Below, one piece after another: positions 1-57,054 of a DNA stretch of 64,000 nucleotides. The DNA comes from Nannocystis pusilla (GTDB lineage Bacteria > Myxococcota_A > Polyangia > Nannocystales > Nannocystaceae). A program made the position numbers and the translations under genes. Each line of letters begins with the position of its first letter. Within the stretch, counting starts at the first letter, position 1. Below the pieces are notes generated by a model. That model was not told the origin of the DNA. It ran no database searches and worked only from the letters and a program-made list of their open reading frames with translations. The stretch lies in the NCBI RefSeq assembly GCF_051105105.1, contig NZ_CP185339.1; one strand, given 5' to 3'.

Positions 1-873
1 TGCGCCAGCTGCGAGCGGCGATGCAGGAGCTGCTGGCGCTCGGCGACCGCATGATCCCGCAGGCGGTGCGCGACCTGAACCAGTGGCTGCACACCGTCCA
101 GCGCCACATCTACGCCGGGTCGTACCACGAGATCCCGTCGAGCCTACGCGCCGAGACGCGGGAGCTCGAGCGCGGCCTTCTGCGCGAGCGTCGGCTGCCG
201 CGGCCCGACGAGCTGCCGTTCCCGCCGTCGACGATCGCCAACTATCGCCACCGCGTCCCGTGGCCCGACCTGCGCCAGGGCGGCTTCCACAACCCGTCGC
301 ACAACCCGTACCGCAACATCCGCACCTTCAGCGGCAACCTGCAGGCGGTCGCGCTGCGGCACCCGCGGAAGATCTACCGCGTGATCGAGAACGCCGACGG
401 CCGCGCGGGCGCCTTCTGGTCGCTCGAAGAAGCCGGCCAGCGGCCGCGCGTGGCGCGAGGACTACGCGGTGCTCGAGTCGTGGAACAGCGACGGCCACTA
501 CATCGAGTTCGAGATCCCGCCGAACATGACGCTCTACGTGTGGCAGGGCAAGGTGGCCAGCCAGGTCGAGACGGACGCGGCGAAGACGGCGACCTACGGG
601 CAGGTGCTCAACGGCGGCGCGCAGCAGCTGCTGATCGACCTGCGCCACCCGAGCAACGCGTGGGCGATGAGCCACGTCGAGGCGCTGCCGCTGCACCCGA
701 CCGGCTGGCGCGATCACAGGGGCGTGAACGTGCCGAACGAGCAGACCCGTGCCATCTTGCTCGGGCACGCCGAGCGCGCCGAGCGGGTCGGCGAATTCAC
801 CGCGGTCACGCGCGTCACGGGCGCGGCGGTCCGCGGCTCGCAGGCCGAGGAGAGGCGGCAGAGGCAGCAGTGA
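1..873 (+). CDS. Hypothetical protein, 5'-partial because it continues upstream of the window. The reading frame shifts at about 440-450 (frame 0 to frame 1).
   Basis: Protein-like translation in frame 0 (MQELLALGDRMIPQAV...AFWSLEEAGQRP) is continued by frame 1 (AWREDYAVLESWNSDGHYIEFEIPPNMTLYVWQGK...). The ORF is open to position 1. The stop TGA at 871-873 overlaps the GTG of the next gene (caGTGAcgg). Confidence 0.5.
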
Positions 874-1754
874 CGGAGCTCCAGACCATCGTCCGGCCGT
901 TCTCGCCGGCCGAGCTCGCTATCGACGCCACCACCCTCGCGCAGGTGTTCTATCGCCTGCGCCGATACTCGTCGCTGACCTACGTCAAGCGCTGCACCGA
1001 GCTGCTGCAGAAGTTCAGCGCCGGCTTCGACGCCTGGGCCCGCAAGTCGGGGCCCGACCACACCCTGTTCGCCCGCAAGGCGCTGAAGACGGTCTATCCG
1101 CCGCTGGCGGCGCTCGAGCAGGTGCCGGGGCTGTTGCTCGGCAACCAGAAGACGCGGGCCTACGACGCGCTGATCCAGGCCGGCTTCCTCACCGAGCTGC
1201 TCGGCCACGGCTTCGACGGCGGCATGCGCTGGGAGAAGTTCGGCTACAACTACGGCGAGCGGCCGAGCGTGGGCCTGTTCGCGTGGGCCGAGAAGGCGGT
1301 GGTCATGGCGGCGCAGATGCAGCGCACCGCCGAGGCCAGGTGGTCGCACACGCTCATGGCTCTGCAGCGCCCGGCGCCGCCGCACGCCCACCTCCAGCCG
1401 ATGCCGCCGGCCGACGGCGTCGTCGTCGACCTGGACGAGGTCGTGCCGGTCACCGGCGTGTGGGTGCCGATCGACGTGCCGAACGGCTGCCCGAACTACC
1501 TGGTCGAGGGCGTGCCGGCGCCCAAGCTGACGGTCGAGATCCAGCGCGTCGATTCCGAGGGTTACCCCGGCGACCCCGAGAACCCGCCGATCGCGGCCCG
1601 CACCGACTACGTCCACGGCGAGGTGCCGACCCGCTGGCAGCTGGCGTGGGACGACATCCGCTACCGCGCCGGCGTCGAGATCGACGAGCCCGAGTTCCTC
1701 GACGAGGAGACCGAACTCCCGGCCTGGCCGCCGGCCCATCCGCCTTCGCCATGA
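871..1754 (+). CDS. Hypothetical protein of about 294 aa, translationally coupled to both neighbours.
   Basis: ORF-track frame 0 from a GTG at 871 (TELQTIVRPFSPAELAID...). Composition is non-repetitive and protein-like. Its stop overlaps the start of the downstream gene (ccATGA). Confidence 0.55.
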
Positions 1755-22724: not shown

Positions 22725-23871
22725 ATGGTGACGCACGCGGTCCGCTGGCGAGCGAGCACGGGGATCGTCGCGGTCGTGGCGTTGACGGGTTGCCTCGACC
22801 GGAACCCCGAGTTCGAGGAGCCGCTATTGCCGACCGCGAGCGGCTCGGGCAGCGCGACCACCACGGGAGATCCGACGGCCGACACGACGTCCCAGGGAAC
22901 GACCGGCTCGCCCACCGCAGGGTCCGCGAGCGAGTCGGCGACCACCGCGATCGACCCGACGGACGGGCTGACGACGGGCATGACGACGACCGAAGGGCTG
23001 ACGACGGGCATCACGACGATGGCGCCGGCGGGCTGCGGCGACGGCATCTTGGCGCCCGACGAGGAGTGCGACGACGGCCCGATGAACGCCGACACCGCGG
23101 CCTGCACCAGCACGTGCAAGCTGGCGAAGTGCGGCGACGGGCTGATCCAGACCGACGTGGAGTACTGCGAGGACCGCAACGACGATCCGGCCGACGGCTG
23201 CGTGAAGTGCTTCGAGCCGCACGTGTGCCAGGAGGTGCTCGACCGGGCCCCCGGCGTACCCTCGGGGCTCTACAAGATGGATCCGGACGGGCCGGGGCCG
23301 GGGCCGCTGGTGCCGGTGTACTGCGACATGACGCTGAAGGGCGGCGGCTGGACCCGCGTCGAGCGCAGCCCGTTCGCCGACCCGATCGCGCGCGCGCTGT
23401 TCGAGGACGTCGAGGTCAACTACGACGACCCGACGAACTCGCGCTATCGCATGGGCAAGGCGGCGATGGTCGTGGTGGGGCAGCACTCGAACGAGATGTG
23501 GATCGAGTGCGGCGGCGTCGACCACCTGTGGACCGACTCCGACTTCCTGTTCGCGGGCCAGGACAACCCGAACTCCTGCGCCAACTACGGCAAGGTGCTC
23601 TACAAGGAGGCGCAGCTGAGCGACATCGTGCTGACCAACGTTCGAGCTGTGCACCGGCTTCACCGGCTTCCTCGACGGCGAGTGCCCGGGCGCGTGGCGC
23701 ATCGACGAGCAGGAGCAGGAGCTGTGCGCGCTGTCCAGCACGCCGTGGATCGACGGGCAGATGTTCACCACGCTGTACTCCGACATCTTCGCGGCCGATC
23801 CGGCGACCGTCGAGCCGGAGGTCCATGATTGCCACAAGCCGGGGGCCATCCGCGCGGTGCTTTTGCGCTGA
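22725..23871 (+). CDS. Lipoprotein, paralog 1 of 3. It has a Thr/Gly linker, Cys-rich repeats and a C-terminal domain with a fibrinogen-like 'YCDM..GGGWT' motif. There is a frameshift at about 23640.
   Basis: Lipobox (VVALTGC); CGDGIL..EECDDG; CQEVLDRAPGVPSGLYKMDPDG...LVPVYCDMTLKGGGWTRVERS; the frame-0 part (LTN) continues in frame 1 (FELCTGFTGFLDGECPGAWRIDEQ...HDCHKPGAIRAVLLR*), matching paralogs 2 and 3. Confidence 0.8.
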
Positions 23872-23960
23872 GCGGCGGGCGCGGTGCGCGAGCGCGGCCG
23901 TGCGCTCCCGCGTGCGCGGGCCGATTGTCGGCGGCGTCGGCGTCGACTACACAGAAATTC

Positions 23961-25103
23961 ATGCGTGCACAGCGGAGCGAGCTTGTCGCGGGCGTCGTCG
24001 TCGCCGCGCTGGTGACCGGTTGCCTCGAGTCGAACCCGTGGTTCGAGGAGCCGACCGCTTCGGGCGCCGCCGCGAGCACGACGCAGGCGCCGACGACCGG
24101 GGGCACGACCGCCGCGCCGCCGCCGACGAGCTCGACGAGCGCGGAGTCGACGACGACGACGACGGGGAGCGAGACGACTGGTTTGACTGCGGACACCGAG
24201 TTCAGCACGTCGTGGCCGCTGTCGACCAGCACGACCGAGTGGTTCTCGACCGGCGACCCGTGGACGTGCGGCGACGGCGTACCCGAGGGCCCCGAGCAGT
24301 GCGACGAGGGCGCCGACAACAGCGACAAGGGCGCCTGCACGACGCTGTGCACGACGGCGGCCTGCGGCGACGGCTTCGTGCAGACCGGCGTGGAGATGTG
24401 CGACGACGCCAACTTCGATCCGAGCGACGGCTGCGTCGCCTGCGTGGTCCCGCACTCGTGCAAGGAGATCCTCGACAACGATCCGCAGGCGAGCCAGGGC
24501 CAGCACTGGGTCGACCTCGACGGGCCGGAGCCGATGCCGCTCATCCCGGTGTACTGCGACATGACGACCGCCGGCGGCGGCTGGACGCTGCTCGAGCGCA
24601 GCCCGCGGAGCGACCCGATCGGCCGCGCGCTCTTCAAGGACGCGCCCGAGAACCCGGGCAACCCGCAGGCGCCGCGGTACCGCATGCCACGCGGGGCGAT
24701 GGGCGCGGCCGCCGTCATTTCGACGGCGATGCGGCTCGACTGCGGCGGCTCCGATTACCTGCTGACCGCCCCGCAGTCGCTGTTCGCCGGCGAGTTCGGC
24801 CCGCCGAACTGCACCAACGCGGGCCCGGTGCTCTACCAGGAGGCGGAGCTCAAGCAGTACAAGCTGACGAACGTGCAGCTGTGCACGGTGTTCGTCGGCC
24901 TCGGCGACGGCCAGTGCGCGGGCGCGTGGAGCATCGACGAGGAGAACCAGTACGACTGCCTGCTCCAGGCTTACCCGTGGGCCGGCAACAACGAGGCGAT
25001 CTCGCCGCCGTCGGCCGACGCGTTCGCGGTCGATCCGCAGCAGGTCGACGCCGGCCACGACTGCCACAAGCCGGACGCGGTGCGCCGGATCATGGTGCGC
25101 TGA
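23961..25103 (+). CDS. Lipoprotein paralog 2 with a fibrinogen-like 'YCDM..GGGWT' C-terminal domain.
   Basis: Lipobox (AALVTGC); CGDGVPEGPEQCDEG; CKEILDNDPQASQGQHWVDLDGPEPMPLIPVYCDMTTAGGGWTLLERS; it ends HDCHKPDAVRRIMVR. Confidence 0.85.
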   Translation: MRAQRSELVAGVVVAALVTGCLESNPWFEEPTASGAAASTTQAPTTGGTTAAPPPTSSTSAESTTTTTGSETTGLTADTEFSTSWPLSTSTTEWFSTGDPWTCGDGVPEGPEQCDEGADNSDKGACTTLCTTAACGDGFVQTGVEMCDDANFDPSDGCVACVVPHSCKEILDNDPQASQGQHWVDLDGPEPMPLIPVYCDMTTAGGGWTLLERSPRSDPIGRALFKDAPENPGNPQAPRYRMPRGAMGAAAVISTAMRLDCGGSDYLLTAPQSLFAGEFGPPNCTNAGPVLYQEAELKQYKLTNVQLCTVFVGLGDGQCAGAWSIDEENQYDCLLQAYPWAGNNEAISPPSADAFAVDPQQVDAGHDCHKPDAVRRIMVR

Positions 25104-25132
25104 ATCGTCAATGAGGGGCCGCCCGACGGATG

Positions 25133-25203
25133 CCGTAAATCATGCGGGAATCGAACCCACATTTTCAGATCTTCAATCCGACGCGTTTACCATTTTCGCC
25201 AAA
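25133..25203 (-). tRNA. tRNA-like remnant or pseudogene (Phe-GAA-like anticodon arm, canonical T-arm). The 5' acceptor strand does not pair.
   Basis: Minus strand reads ...GCG-AAAATGGTAAA-CGC-G-TCGGA-TTGAAGA-TCTGA-AAAT-GTGGG-TTCGATT-CCCGC-ATGATTT-A. The D, anticodon and T arms fold. The first 7 nt do not complement ATGATTT. Confidence 0.45.
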
Positions 25204-25380
25204 GATAGATGACGCCCGCCCACGTGGCGGCCCCTCGCGGCGAGGATGACCGCACGCGGCCGCTCGCGTCAAGCCGCGCCGACGCCGCGCGGGCGGTCCT
25301 GCGCCGTTCTCGACGCATCGCGCGATCTCGCCCGAGCGCCGGGAATTGCTGACGGCGGCGCGCTCGACTACACCGGGGAG

Positions 25381-26415
25381 ATGCGACTTGGCTTGCTCGG
25401 TGCGGGGTTGGTGGTGGCGGTGACGGGGTCGACGGCGTGTCTCGACCGCAACCCGCAGTTCGAGGACCCGCTGCCGACGGGGAGCGCGTCGGACGGGGCG
25501 ACGACGAAGGTCGAGGGGACGACGACCGGCGTGCTGTCGACGACGACGAGCACGACGAGCGCGGGGACCACCGTCGAGCCGGGGACGACGGAGCATGAGG
25601 ACACGCATTGGCCGGTGACGACGACGTCGACGTCGTCGACGACCACGGGCATGACGTTCGTGATGGAGACGTGCGGCGACGGGAAGATCGATGGCGGGGA
25701 GGAGTGCGACGACGACAATACGGACATCGAGGACGGCTGCATCGATTGCAAGGTGCCGCGGACGTGCGCCGATGTCCGCCAGTTCGCGCCGAACTCGGAC
25801 TCCGGCGTGTACCTGATCGACGTGGACGGCATGGGCGCCTACCCGCCGCTGGCGGTCTATTGCGACATGGCGACGACGGGCGGCGGCTGGACGGTGATCG
25901 AACGCAGCCCGCGCGAGGATCCGATCGGGACGCCGCTGTTCGTCGACAACGCGGTCAACTCGGATCTGCCGGAGGAGCCGCGCTTCCGGATCAAGAAGGA
26001 GCCGATCGAGCTGCTCCTGCCGCTGGTGGCGGAGATGCGGATCGACTGCGGCGGCGACGATTATCTGCTGACCGACGCGGGGGCGATCTTCAGCGGCGCG
26101 GGGCTGCCGGTCTGTACGATGGCCAAGGTGTTTTACAAAGAGGCCAGGCTCAAGGGCTACGCGCTGACCGACACGGAGCTGTGCACCGGCTTCCACGGGT
26201 CGGCAGACGGCTGCTGGGGCGCGTGGCACGTCGACGAATACTCGCAGCAAGATTGCAGCCTGCCGCCATTCCCGTGGAACTTCATGGTGCCGATCACGAG
26301 CGACGGCGCCGACGCGTTCGCGGTCGACCCGTCGGCGTTCGACAATGGGCAGCTGATGCCGCCGATCCACGATTGCCACCAGCCGGGCGCGGTGCGCGTG
26401 GTGATGCTGCGGTGA
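25381..26415 (+). CDS. Lipoprotein paralog 3 with a fibrinogen-like 'YCDM..GGGWT' C-terminal domain.
   Basis: Lipobox (VAVTGSTAC); CGDGKIDGGEECDDDN; CADVRQFAPNSDSGVYLIDVDGMGAYPPLAVYCDMATTGGGWTVIERS; it ends HDCHQPGAVRVVMLR. Confidence 0.85.
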   Translation: MRLGLLGAGLVVAVTGSTACLDRNPQFEDPLPTGSASDGATTKVEGTTTGVLSTTTSTTSAGTTVEPGTTEHEDTHWPVTTTSTSSTTTGMTFVMETCGDGKIDGGEECDDDNTDIEDGCIDCKVPRTCADVRQFAPNSDSGVYLIDVDGMGAYPPLAVYCDMATTGGGWTVIERSPREDPIGTPLFVDNAVNSDLPEEPRFRIKKEPIELLLPLVAEMRIDCGGDDYLLTDAGAIFSGAGLPVCTMAKVFYKEARLKGYALTDTELCTGFHGSADGCWGAWHVDEYSQQDCSLPPFPWNFMVPITSDGADAFAVDPSAFDNGQLMPPIHDCHQPGAVRVVMLR

Positions 26416-27226
26416 GCCGCGGCGCGGCGTCTTTTTCTAAATGAATGGACAGAGGCTCTCGCGGCGCCTCGGGGCGTGACCGTCAGGCGGTAATCGGGAC
26501 TGGAGCACGCGAAGCGAGGTCCGCCCTACCATTTTGCCCGCATCCACGGCGTGGACCGGCCGCGGCGCCGCGAGAGCCGGCGAATCGTAGGCGCGGCAGG
26601 GGCCGGTCGCAAGGCCTGGGATCGCCCGCGTGCGGGCCGAGGACGGGCGGTCATGGTCCCACCGCTGCGCGCGAGGTGCCGCGAAAGGCTGGAGCGCAGC
26701 GACGAGCGCGGTGACTCGGTCGAGGCGCAGAGCTACGACCAGTTGACCTCGGAGACGCCGTTTCCGGCCCTGACACCGGTCTTGCGGCGCTGTTCGCCGT
26801 CAGGCCGTGGCGCCCGGGACGGAGCCGCGGCCGCGGGTACATCCCGGTGTGGACGATCGAGCTGCTCGCGCGCGAGCGGCGAGCGATGGAGAGGTGCGGG
26901 TCGAATGGGCATGGTGGTCTGGGAAGGCTCGGTTGGCCTGCCAGGGAGAGGCACCGACTCGCGGCAAGTCGCAGGGAAACTTCAGCGTCGATGCGCGCTG
27001 GAGAGCGCAGGGCCCTTGTCCGGATACACCGCCACCTCATCGGGCCCCGCGGGTAGCGGGGCGATGCGCCGGTAGACTCGCTGAATGGCGGTCAGCCGCC
27101 AAATGCCGCTTTCGCGCAGCAGAGCGGGCGGGCTGATTCGCCCGGCGAAGTGTGCTGCGCACACCTTGCGCTCCTGCTCGCCTGCACAGGCTTGAAACGA
27201 GAGGGGGGTGTGGAGACCATCTAAGC

Positions 27227-28939
27227 ATGGTCGAAATAGTATTGCTCTGTATCCTCGGCCTCGCTCTATTGGGGCTCGGGGGCGTCTTGCGACGGTTGCG
27301 GGCGCTCAGCGCTACGCATACCGAATTACAACGACGATTTGCGCCTGTGGTCGAGGTCGACCTGGAGCTTCAGCGCGTCAAGACGGAGGTGGACGAGGAG
27401 CGTAGGCGCTTCGCTGCCGAGCGCCAACGCGGCGCCTCGGAGGTAGAGACCGCCCGCTCGCAGGTAGCCGCGGAGCGCACCGCCGTCCTTGCGCAGCGCG
27501 CGGCGGCGGCCGCCGAGCTCGACGTGGAGCGTCGCAATCTGGCCGCCGAGATGGATGGGGAGCGCCGCCGCCTGGCCGCCGAGCTTGAAGAGGAGCGGCG
27601 CCACATCGCCGCCGAGCATCAACGCGGCGCAGCGGAGGTGGAGAGCGCTCGTTTGCAGCTCGCCTCGGAGGTCGCCACTTTGCAGGCACAGCGCCAGCGA
27701 AGCGCGGTCGAGATCGACAGCTTTCGCCGCCAGGTCGCCGCCGAGGTCGCAGCGCAGCGCGCTGCTGCCATTGCCGAGGTGGAACAAATCCATGCCGGCA
27801 GCGCCAAGCTGAGGGCGGAGTTCGCGGCTCTCGACGAAGAGAGCAACCTGCAGGCCTTCGCCTTCTACAAGCCACGATACGCGTTCGCCAGCTCCGAGCA
27901 CTATCAGAGCAAGCTGGAAGAGATCCGTGAGCGGCAGAAGCGCATGCTCAAGGACAAGGAGGCGGCGACCTGCGCCGAGGAATGGCTGGTCAATGGCAGC
28001 AAGGTCGAAGGGCGCAAGCAGATCAACCAGACCTTGAAGCTGATGCTGCGCGCGTTCAACGGCGAGTGCGACGCAACCATCCCCAAGGTGCGCTACAACA
28101 ACGTCGGCGTGATGGAAGCGCGCATCCGCAAGGCCTGGGACGTCATCAACAGCTGTGCCGAGGTGCAGCGCTGTACGATCAGCGACAGCTACCTTTGTCT
28201 CAAGCTGGAAGAGTTGAGCCTTGTCCACGAATACGAGGAAAAGGTCCAGCAGGAGAGGGACGAACAGCGCCGGATCAAGGAGCAGATGCGGGAGGAAGAG
28301 CAGGCTCAGCGCGAGCTGGAGAAGGCCAAGCAGGAGGCAGAGAAGGAGGAAGCTCGCTTCGCGGAGGCGCTCAAGAAGGCTCAGGAAGAGGCCCAACGCT
28401 TGTCAGGAGCGAAGCAGCAGAAGCTGATCGCGCAGGTCGCCGAATTGGAGCGGAAGCTGGCGGAGGCCCAAACGAACAAGGCACGCGCGGTCTCGCGGGC
28501 CCAGATGACCCGTTCAGGTCATGTGTATATCATCTCGAACATCGGGTCGTTCGGGGAACACGTGTACAAGATCGGCATGACACGGCGGCTCGATCCGATG
28601 GATCGCGTCAAGGAGCTCGGAGACGCTTCGGTCCCGTTCGAGTTCGATGTTCATGCGATCATATACGCCGAGGACGCGCCGAAGCTGGAGAGCGAACTGC
28701 ACAGAGCATTCCATCACCGGCGCGTCAACCGGGTGAATGAGCGCAAGGAGTTCTTCAACGTCTCGATCATGGAGATCGCCGAGCACGTACGCCTGCATCA
28801 TCACGCCAGCATCGAGATCGTCCACGAGGCCGAGGCCATGGAGTACAGGAAGACGCTGTCCATGACGCAGTCCGCCCCGAACCTCGCGCCCGATCCGAAG
28901 CAAGCGCTGGTCAGGCTCGCGGCGGGGGCCGGCGCGTGA
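27227..28939 (+). CDS. Protein with an N-terminal TM, a long coiled coil, and DUF4041 plus T5orf172 (GIY-YIG/MUG113-like) domains. Its GC content is clearly lower than the surroundings.
   Basis: MVEIVLLCILGLALLGLGGVL; ER/AE-rich heptads; GHVYIISNIGSFGEHVYKIGMTRRLDPMDRVKELGDASVPFEFDVHAIIYAEDAPKLESELHRAFHHRRVNRVNERKEFF; many A/T-ending codons. Confidence 0.8.
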   Translation: MVEIVLLCILGLALLGLGGVLRRLRALSATHTELQRRFAPVVEVDLELQRVKTEVDEERRRFAAERQRGASEVETARSQVAAERTAVLAQRAAAAAELDVERRNLAAEMDGERRRLAAELEEERRHIAAEHQRGAAEVESARLQLASEVATLQAQRQRSAVEIDSFRRQVAAEVAAQRAAAIAEVEQIHAGSAKLRAEFAALDEESNLQAFAFYKPRYAFASSEHYQSKLEEIRERQKRMLKDKEAATCAEEWLVNGSKVEGRKQINQTLKLMLRAFNGECDATIPKVRYNNVGVMEARIRKAWDVINSCAEVQRCTISDSYLCLKLEELSLVHEYEEKVQQERDEQRRIKEQMREEEQAQRELEKAKQEAEKEEARFAEALKKAQEEAQRLSGAKQQKLIAQVAELERKLAEAQTNKARAVSRAQMTRSGHVYIISNIGSFGEHVYKIGMTRRLDPMDRVKELGDASVPFEFDVHAIIYAEDAPKLESELHRAFHHRRVNRVNERKEFFNVSIMEIAEHVRLHHHASIEIVHEAEAMEYRKTLSMTQSAPNLAPDPKQALVRLAAGAGA

Positions 28940-29170
28940 AGCCATCCGATTCTGCTGAGGGGGGCGCGAGGAGTCGTGACCACCGCTGCCCCGCCACATG
29001 AGCCGCGACCGGACGCGGACAGCCGGGTACGAGCCGTGGGACGGTGAGCTGCAGCGGGCGAGTGATGATTCGCGGCATGGGGGTGCCTGTGGGAGCGACG
29101 ACGGGGCCGGAAGGGCCGCGCGGCGCCGGAGGTCATGACGTCGCGGGGATCTCCGGGGCGGGGCGGAGCG

Positions 29171-55970: not shown

Positions 55971-56531
55971 CTATTTGGCGCACCAGATCTCGTACTCGAC
56001 GAGCATGCCCGGGATCGCCAGGGCGTCGACGATCCGCAGGGTGCCGGCCGCCGGCTTGATGTTCACCGGGGCGAAGTAGTCGGCGAACAGGCCGAGGATC
56101 GCGTTGAACTCGCCGTCGGTGACGTCGGTCGTCATCGTGAACTCGATGCGGATGATGTCCTTGCGGTCGTAGCCGGCGTCGTCGAGATATTCGTCGAAGT
56201 GGTCGAGGATGTACTGCGTCTGCCCGACGGCGTCGCCGGGGTACATGATCTGCCCGTTCGAATCGTGCGCGCCGTGGCCGGCGATGAGGAACAGCTCGTC
56301 GATGTTCCGCAGCTTGAGGCCCCAATTGAAGATAGCCCCGAAGTCGGGCGCCTCCGGGTTCGGCACCGCGATCTTCTTGAAGTGACCGTTATTGTTGTTG
56401 TTATTGCCGTGGCCCCAGCCGTTGCCGTTGCCGTTACCGTGACCCCAGCCGTTACCCGATACTACTTGGGGCGCTGCGATCGACATCGAGAGCGCGAGGA
56501 GAATCGTCGAAATGAATACTGGCCGCTGCAT
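55971..56531 (-). CDS. Secreted RidA/YjgF family protein with a Gly/Asn/His-rich N-terminal stretch.
   Basis: Signal peptide (MQRPVFISTILLALSMSIAAPQV); GNGWGHGNGNGNGWGHGNNNNNNGH; a RidA core (..LFLIAGHGAHDSNGQI...EFTMTTDV..); lower-GC codons. Confidence 0.7.
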   Translation of the reverse strand: MQRPVFISTILLALSMSIAAPQVVSGNGWGHGNGNGNGWGHGNNNNNNGHFKKIAVPNPEAPDFGAIFNWGLKLRNIDELFLIAGHGAHDSNGQIMYPGDAVGQTQYILDHFDEYLDDAGYDRKDIIRIEFTMTTDVTDGEFNAILGLFADYFAPVNIKPAAGTLRIVDALAIPGMLVEYEIWCAK

Positions 56532-57054
56532 CCCACACCTCCAACGAGAACACGTTACGGGGCCGGTGATACTCGTGTCAATCGCCATCGATGCGCATGC
56601 ATCAAATTTGGGGCAGCGCCGCGTACCTTGCTTCACTTCACCCACGTCACCCACGGCCGCTGACAGGTGGTTGCGGGCGCAAGCGGGGGTTCATGGCGCA
56701 ATTCGTCGGCAGCCGAGGATTCACCTATGATCATTGTTTCGCGGGGCGACAGACGCCGGCCCGCGCGGGTCACTCTCGGGCCGCGCCTGTCCGCAGCCGC
56801 GTGCGACGAATCGCGGGCGAGGGCGCGCCTCAGAATGTATATAGTCCGAGTGCTCATCGGCGAATCCGGGGGCGCGCAAATGTCATTTGGGGACGTTGCA
56901 CCGCGCGGGTCGTGGCGCCCCTCGTCGATGGCAGTCGACCCCGCGCGCGGTCACTTGTCCGGCTTCCTCTTCCCTCGCAGAGAACACAGTTTTTCGGCGC
57001 TTTCGCGCGGCCCGCACGACCCCGGACGCGGCCGTCCGGATATGCTCGCCGGCG

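Follow-up and report, generated by a model that had tools for sequence, protein, structure and literature searches.

A predicted SNIPE (PD-λ-1) homologue in Nannocystis pusilla with a membrane anchor clipped in the public annotation

A Nannocystis homologue of SNIPE

We analyzed a 64,000-nucleotide stretch of the Nannocystis pusilla genome (contig NZ_CP185339.1 of assembly GCF_051105105.1; referred to here as the window) and the gene at 27227-28939 on its plus strand, a single intact open reading frame (ORF) that, according to the ORF list and its translation, is a complete coding sequence (CDS) of 570 amino acids (aa) plus the stop codon. Judged by its profile and sequence matches, this gene is a Nannocystis homologue of SNIPE (PD-λ-1), a single-gene defense family that was already known. 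PD-λ-1 was found by functional selection in Escherichia coli (Vassallo et al. 2022, PMC9519451) and has been renamed SNIPE and characterized (Saxton et al., Nature 2026;653:861, PMC13190303). A preliminary description of the same DNA, made from the letters alone, had named the domains of the protein and proposed a defense or abortive infection (Abi)-type gene; it did not recognize the architecture as that of the known PD-λ-1/SNIPE system. The finding leaves the understanding of the SNIPE family unchanged, and its minor value lies in a miscalled start codon, a duplicated stalk, and cassette-like population genetics.

Two PADLOC PD-Lambda-1 profiles matched the protein, PDLC03976 with an E value of 4.1e-162 (538 bits, with aa 117-550 aligned to profile positions 56-476 of 491) and PDLC03977 with an E value of 1.6e-159, and PHROG 1847, a family of unknown function, matched it at 9e-149. 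The DUF4041 domain and the C-terminal T5orf172/MUG113 domain given in the preliminary description were borne out by a Pfam search, in which DUF4041 (PF13250) was found at aa 271-326 (E = 9.8e-21; 73.8 bits against a cutoff of 27; profile positions 1-56 of 56), T5orf172 at aa 431-522 (E = 4.5e-16), and MUG113 at aa 447-522 (E = 3.5e-19), all three exceeding the curated Pfam cutoffs. In the precomputed contig database, the label of PF13250 is "SNIPE." No NCBIfam model was found for the protein, and a sequence search of the PDB returned no solved relative.

The nuclease motifs are conserved. In an alignment of 9 homologues and in another of 52, the invariant residues were E488; G431, V433, and Y434 (the "GIY" element); and K448-I-G450 (the "YIG" element); R453/R454, R460, N501/N504, and E508-F-F510 were likewise invariant in both alignments. 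Y447 of the "YIG" element was invariant in the 9-sequence alignment only, not in that of 52. Of the features that mark a protein as belonging to the SNIPE family, those found in the window gene are the PADLOC profile match, DUF4041, a nuclease domain with its catalytic Glu, a transmembrane (TM) element (given the ATG 27227 start), and organization as a single-gene unit.

Comparison with E. coli SNIPE and other nucleases

A tblastn search of plasmids led us to an E. coli homologue that lies among lambdoid prophage genes, beside ren and the gene for replication protein P. Because the nine residues that the SNIPE paper names (L253, E264, K305, E223, T319, W257, I308, N250, and E414) are all present in this protein, we took it, on sequence grounds, for SNIPE or a protein almost identical to it. 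Aligned with it over 356 aa (aa 194-546; E = 7e-117), the window protein shows 50% identity and 69% similarity, a span that covers the core of DUF4041, linker, and nuclease, and SNIPE E414 aligns with E488 of the window protein. The equivalent gene in a phage record, PhiR26_1, is annotated "PD-lambda-1," and its product is likewise 50% identical to the window protein.

The two proteins are alike in the order of their parts (TM helix, helical stalk, DUF4041, helical linker, and GIY-YIG nuclease), in the catalytic Glu, and in being encoded as a single-gene unit. They differ N-terminally, where the window protein is unrelated in sequence to E. coli SNIPE and its stalk carries a 65-aa duplication and 33-bp repeats. 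Their settings also differ, E. coli SNIPE sitting in a lambdoid prophage, whereas the window gene occupies a chromosomal variable cassette of a myxobacterium with a guanine-plus-cytosine (GC) content of 72%. DUF4041 proteins of other myxobacteria (Nannocystis sp. ILAH1 and RBIL2, Polyangium jinanense, Chondromyces apiculatus, and Sorangium spp.) are 59 to 87% identical to the window protein in the core (best BLASTP alignment) and have the TM start motif in common with it. The ILAH1 protein is 87% identical by this measure, or 89% identical over 375 aligned core codons, and the ILAH1 and RBIL2 orthologues lie at the same syntenic site as the window gene. In contrast, other GIY-YIG (URI) nucleases, namely, Slx1/HIGLE, I-TevI, the UvrC N-terminal domain, and PD-T4-3, show only ~13% identity, and all lack the TM anchor, DUF4041, and the stalk; their biology (repair, homing, or restriction) differs as well. 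The window gene adds a myxobacterial, high-GC example to a family in which spatial discrimination of self from nonself at the membrane has been worked out only in E. coli.

The start codon and the membrane anchor

An NCBI entry, "DUF4041 domain-containing protein" of Nannocystis pusilla, encoded on a 12.2-Mb contig, matches the ORF product at 100% identity over 530 aa. That 530-aa protein, as called by the Prokaryotic Genome Annotation Pipeline (PGAP), begins at V41 (GTG 27347), so that 27227-27346 is left off and the TM helix is omitted. The N-terminal TM helix noted in the preliminary description was upheld, since aa 3-21 are predicted to span the membrane with a mean Kyte-Doolittle hydropathy of 2.49 over a 19-residue window. 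Fifty of the 52 close homologues begin with an aligned TM-like helix followed by an LRLRKL-type motif; these TM segments line up with residues M1-R25 of the window protein (MVEIVLLCILGLALLGLGGVLRRLR, the segment with that hydropathy score), and the helix aligns also with that of E. coli SNIPE. A candidate Shine-Dalgarno sequence, GGAG (27212-27215), lies 11 nucleotides (nt) before ATG 27227. From the aligned helices of the homologues and this spacing, we conclude that ATG 27227, where the preliminary description had placed the start, is a better start than V41 and that the public annotation clips the TM helix, with the result that the feature on which the SNIPE mechanism depends is lost from it. 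An in-frame GTG at 27152, 25 codons upstream of ATG 27227, was rejected as a start codon because those 50 homologues begin at the TM helix.

In 59% of SNIPE homologues, the first 70 aa include a single TM helix (PMC13190303). The family has also been reported to include 34% of homologues without a TM helix, and since the PGAP start removes the helix here, some of these may be artifacts of start codon annotation.

The preliminary description had called the 811 bp upstream of the gene (26416-27226) both AT shifted and noncoding. The former did not hold, the GC content being 0.702 compared with 0.722 (~72%) for the window and staying between 0.69 and 0.75 in 200-nt windows up to 27100. The latter did: the region looks noncoding, with no coding periodicity, no Pfam or Rfam match, and no frame-specific signal in GC at third codon positions (GC3), which was 0.68 to 0.74 in all six frames. 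ORFs of 174, 129, and 109 aa in this region were rejected as genes, having neither a Pfam match nor codon periodicity. An Rfam scan of the region gave no usable match, its single subthreshold small-RNA hit falling inside the CDS, and a promoter scan likewise gave nothing usable, its single sigma-70-like site also falling inside the CDS.

The terminator-like hairpin with a T run at 26416-26428 is that of the preceding gene, and the gene on the downstream side is convergent, making the window gene a stand-alone single-gene unit. No co-oriented partner gene is conserved across the Nannocystis loci examined, which fits a single-gene system.

Predicted structure and the duplicated stalk

An AlphaFold2 (AF2) model built with 52 sequences (mean predicted local distance difference test [pLDDT] score, 78) is elongated. 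It consists of a single unbroken helix at aa 2-199, which comprises the TM segment and the stalk; a globular DUF4041 region, with pLDDT means of 85 to 98 in 10-residue blocks for aa 221-340 (at least 89 in every block except the first); a helical hairpin formed by aa 320-391 and 395-427; and a beta-alpha nuclease domain at aa 431-531. A coiled coil of ~250 aa had been described behind the TM helix. There is indeed a helical stalk, but it is shorter, ~180 aa (aa 22-199), with a separate hairpin of ~105 aa (aa 320-427) farther along the protein.

The stalk is internally duplicated with an offset of 65 aa and a self-identity of 43%, and it contains the 33-bp tandem repeat listed in Table 1 (repeat family D1). 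The conserved LDEE motif is preceded by 203 aa in the window protein, compared with ~126 aa before the equivalent position in E. coli SNIPE, a median of 156 aa (range, 87 to 252) among the 52 homologues, and 87 aa in the ILAH1 orthologue. Since the N-terminal "adapter" has already been described as the part of SNIPE most variable in sequence and length (PMC13190303), the long duplicated stalk is variation within the family and not a new architecture. The window stalk is ~117 aa longer than those of the ILAH1 and RBIL2 orthologues, and this 117-aa difference between orthologues at one locus provides natural variants for probing the "adapter" idea.

Table 1. Coordinates of the SNIPE homologue, its parts, and its surroundings in the window
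Feature	Coordinates	Strand	Basis
SNIPE/PD-λ-1 homologue CDS	27227..28939	+	ORF, PADLOC, PHROG, NCBI identity
N-terminal single-pass TM helix, aa 3-21, EIVLLCILGLALLGLGGVL, then RRLR	27233..27289	+	Kyte-Doolittle, homologue alignment
Alpha-helical stalk, aa 22-199, E/R/A rich, with internal duplication	27290..27823	+	AF2 helix; the family's variable "adapter" region
33-bp (11-aa, hendecad-like) tandem repeat in stalk, 3.3 copies	27508..27617	+	Tandem Repeats Finder: period 33, 79% matches, score 122
Globular DUF4041 (PF13250, now SNIPE) domain, ~aa 205-335	27839..28231	+	Pfam part, aa 271-326 = 28037-28204
Helical hairpin linker from DUF4041 to nuclease, aa 336-427, E/K/R/Q rich	28232..28507	+	AF2; strongly conserved in homologues
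GIY-YIG-type nuclease domain (T5orf172/MUG113), aa 428-535	28508..28831	+	Catalytic Glu E488 codon, 28688-28690
Upstream intergenic region, 811 bp	26416..27226	.	Terminator-like hairpin, Shine-Dalgarno candidate, normal GC
Strain-variable cassette carrying the gene	26602..29010	.	blastn of window against the Na p29 locus (L013) and other Nannocystis loci

Proposed mechanism and alternatives

E. coli SNIPE, a nuclease bound to the membrane, cuts phage DNA during injection, protects against siphoviruses, and associates with the tape-measure protein or with entry proteins; plasmid transformation is not blocked (PMC13190303). Its GIY-YIG nuclease is essential, the E414A substitution abolishing defense, and its DUF4041 domain binds DNA and probably tape-measure proteins (PMC13190303). 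By analogy, we regard it as highly probable that the window protein acts in direct defense as a GIY-YIG nuclease tethered to the membrane, cleaving phage DNA while it is being injected. DUF4041 would bind DNA and the phage's tape-measure protein where the genome is injected, the nuclease, whose catalytic Glu is E488, would then cut the entering phage DNA, and the membrane tether would keep the nuclease away from the chromosome. Our analysis shows the architecture, family membership, conservation of the catalytic residues, purifying selection, and accessory (presence/absence) status of the gene. By homology, defense activity and the injection-stage mechanism would be carried over to Nannocystis, along with partners in the phage and the host.

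Several observations weigh against direct injection-stage defense by the window protein. The mechanism in E. coli depends partly on ManYZ, and the N-terminal "adapter" of the window protein has no sequence in common with the E. coli adapter. There is no neighboring defense gene in the window and, hence, no guilt by association. The orthologue in Nannocystis bainbridge (locus L007, 13006-14756) is frameshifted within DUF4041 into overlapping ORFs of 282 and 318 aa; this split gene is a pseudogene unless the assembly is in error, and the frameshift implies that the locus can decay.

The same nuclease could in principle serve as an Abi or toxic effector that infection releases or activates, so that the cell would die from attack on its own chromosome. 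Deletion of the TM helix renders E. coli SNIPE highly toxic, with host DNA being cut (PMC13190303), implying that the nuclease is not intrinsically phage specific, and T5orf172/GIY-YIG domains occur in other defense contexts, such as PDC-S57, whose PADLOC profile matched the window protein at 5e-19. However, the characterized family member provides direct defense, under which infected cells stay alive and keep growing, in contrast to an Abi control (PMC13190303), and the window protein retains the same TM anchor and architecture. An Abi role is therefore very unlikely; of the two possibilities that the preliminary description had offered, the defense reading is supported, and the Abi designation is contradicted for the characterized member of the family. 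That the gene is a decaying or silent remnant of horizontal acquisition, nonfunctional in this strain, would accord with its atypical codon usage (the lowest GC3 and second-lowest codon adaptation index [CAI]-like value in the window), with the frameshifted N. bainbridge orthologue, and with its absence from 4 of eight Nannocystis genomes. Yet the 570-codon ORF is intact and retains all of the catalytic and family-invariant residues, and it has a plausible predicted ribosome-binding site and a predicted independent transcription unit. In the SNIPE core, moreover, the ratio of nonsynonymous to synonymous divergence (dN/dS) from the ILAH1 allele is 0.10 to 0.13, despite a dS of ~0.6 (0.58 to 0.66). 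By its low dN/dS, the sequence shows the mark of purifying selection, and we give the idea of a dead remnant little credence.

A role outside defense would have to be either that of an SMC-like "chromosome segregation ATPase," the annotation carried by some homologues, or that of a homing or mobile GIY-YIG endonuclease. A Pfam search of the window protein found no ATPase, Walker, or SMC head domain, and the matches to JetC (E = 8.5e-5, at the coiled-coil level) and LmuB were confined to low-complexity helical regions. No intron, intein, or target gene context points to a homing enzyme, which the membrane anchor does not fit either. With the match to the defense family being more than 150 orders of magnitude stronger, a nondefense function is barely conceivable.

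The locus and its history

The neighbors of the SNIPE gene comprise genes for a PEGA-domain protein and a Ser/Thr kinase, a pair of DUF4215/fibrinogen-like paralogues, a gene for a hypothetical protein of 352 aa, a major vault protein (MVP)-like gene, and the endonuclease III gene; Pfam found the kinase, PEGA, fibrinogen-like, MVP-like, and endonuclease III domains. The defense-island context that the preliminary description had brought up was not seen at this locus. When PADLOC was applied to 30 other window ORFs, it returned generic Ser/Thr kinase matches plus a few weak, nonspecific ones, namely, those of a SUKH-like ORF (PDC-M40A) and of the endonuclease III homologue (REase_II) and one HEAT-repeat match. 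The PD-T4-6, MkoA, and mad6 matches of two neighboring Ser/Thr kinases were rejected as defense calls because they are generic kinase domain matches in a kinase-rich myxobacterium. There was no tRNA in the window and no integrase or transposase at the locus, and a search for flanking direct repeats found none that was convincing; an exact 14-nt repeat, with one copy at the left boundary and another inside the gene, was judged to be due to chance. The locus is neither a defense island nor a recognizable mobile element.

The locus is syntenic across Nannocystis, and among eight genomes the gene is present at the same site in four (the window strain, Nannocystis sp. ILAH1, Nannocystis sp. RBIL2, and N. 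bainbridge) and absent from it in four (N. pusilla Na p29, N. exedens, N. radixulma, and N. punicea). N. pusilla Na p29 has, in place of 26602-29010, a 655-bp filler of unrelated sequence; the flanks on either side are 88 to 91% identical to those in the window, and the filler has only two short matches, both to window positions 26862-26977. The filler itself (L013, 14368-15022) has a GC content of 0.67 and resembled, by eye, a Cys-rich coding fragment of the opposite strand.

For five flanking genes, dS relative to ILAH1 was 0.07 to 0.16, making that of the SNIPE core (0.58, with a dN/dS of 0.10) 4 to 8 times higher, a value that the lower codon bias of the gene may inflate somewhat. This excess suggests that the SNIPE alleles are older than their flanks, which would mean cassette exchange at a conserved site. 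In the wider databases, family members were found on 201 plasmid records and 41 phage records, and the copies on plasmids of Hymenobacter (Bacteroidota) have core identities of 64 to 66%, which puts them about level with the proteins of other myxobacteria. Both observations fit frequent horizontal transfer of the SNIPE family. Taken together, the presence/absence polymorphism at one syntenic site, the excess of dS, and the lowest GC3 in the window lend moderate support to a horizontal or cassette-like history, as the preliminary description had proposed; the gene behaves as an exchangeable cassette without a recognizable mobile element.

We put forward more speculatively, and as rather improbable, the possibility that recombination is concentrated at the conserved fib-SNIPE-hyp352-MVP site of Nannocystis, a hotspot where divergent SNIPE alleles would be exchanged, lengthened, or lost, and that the stalk (with 87 aa before the LDEE motif in short-stalk alleles and 203 aa in long-stalk ones) is a tunable ruler or adapter. 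The long stalk would then have been built by the 65-aa duplication and the 11-aa repeats, its length and sequence would set which phage entry apparatus is reached in the myxobacterial envelope, and a ManYZ-type partner might not be used.

Nucleotide composition

We compared the SNIPE ORF, counted from the upstream GTG, with the 40 other window ORFs that have a coding-type GC pattern. Its overall GC content was 0.638 (mean, 0.724; z = -2.7), and its GC content at codon position 2 was 0.41, the lowest of the set (mean, 0.535; z = -2.4). GC3 was 0.807 (0.818 if counted from ATG 27227), the lowest of the 41 ORFs (mean, 0.923; z = -2.4), and the CAI-like index was 0.51, the second lowest (mean, 0.71; z = -2.0). 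The preliminary description was therefore right that codon usage is AT richer than the background, but its "many A/T third positions" overstated the case, as ~82% of third positions are still G or C. The GC deficit is split almost equally between position 2, which reflects amino acid content, and position 3, and the low position 2 value stems from the conserved E/K/I/N/Y-rich sequence rather than from codon choice. The dip falls in the conserved part comprising DUF4041, linker, and nuclease, where 200-nt windows over 27800-28900 have GC contents of 0.575 to 0.65; the stalk is native-like at 0.66 to 0.76.

A second low-GC ORF lies at 55971-56654 on the minus strand. It encodes a Ribonuc_L-PSP (RidA-like) domain, has a GC content of 0.614 and a GC3 of 0.84, and is the only window ORF below the SNIPE gene in overall GC.

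Other features of the window

The two DUF4215/fibrinogen-C-like genes, which occupy 23829-26415, are tandem paralogues, DUF4215 being a myxobacterial Cys-rich repeat. There are two copies in the window and three in the other aligned Nannocystis loci, and they evolve fast, with dN/dS values of 0.40 to 0.52 relative to ILAH1.

On the other side of the SNIPE gene, the segment at 30448-35168 that carries the MVP-like gene (30648-33368; Vault_3 and MVP_shoulder) has the opposite orientation to its counterparts in Nannocystis sp. ILAH1 and RBIL2, N. pusilla Na p29, and N. exedens. It is bracketed by a 30-nt inverted repeat (30448-30477 and 35139-35168, 97% complementary) and includes a window-specific insert of 1.47 kb (33668-35138) with a SUKH-1/SMI1_KNR4-like ORF and a weak NusA_N-like ORF. 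Domains of the polymorphic-toxin immunity type, Imm72/Imm71 at 21-1754(+) and SUKH-1 at 34329-34985(+), hint at toxin-immunity cargo elsewhere in the window.
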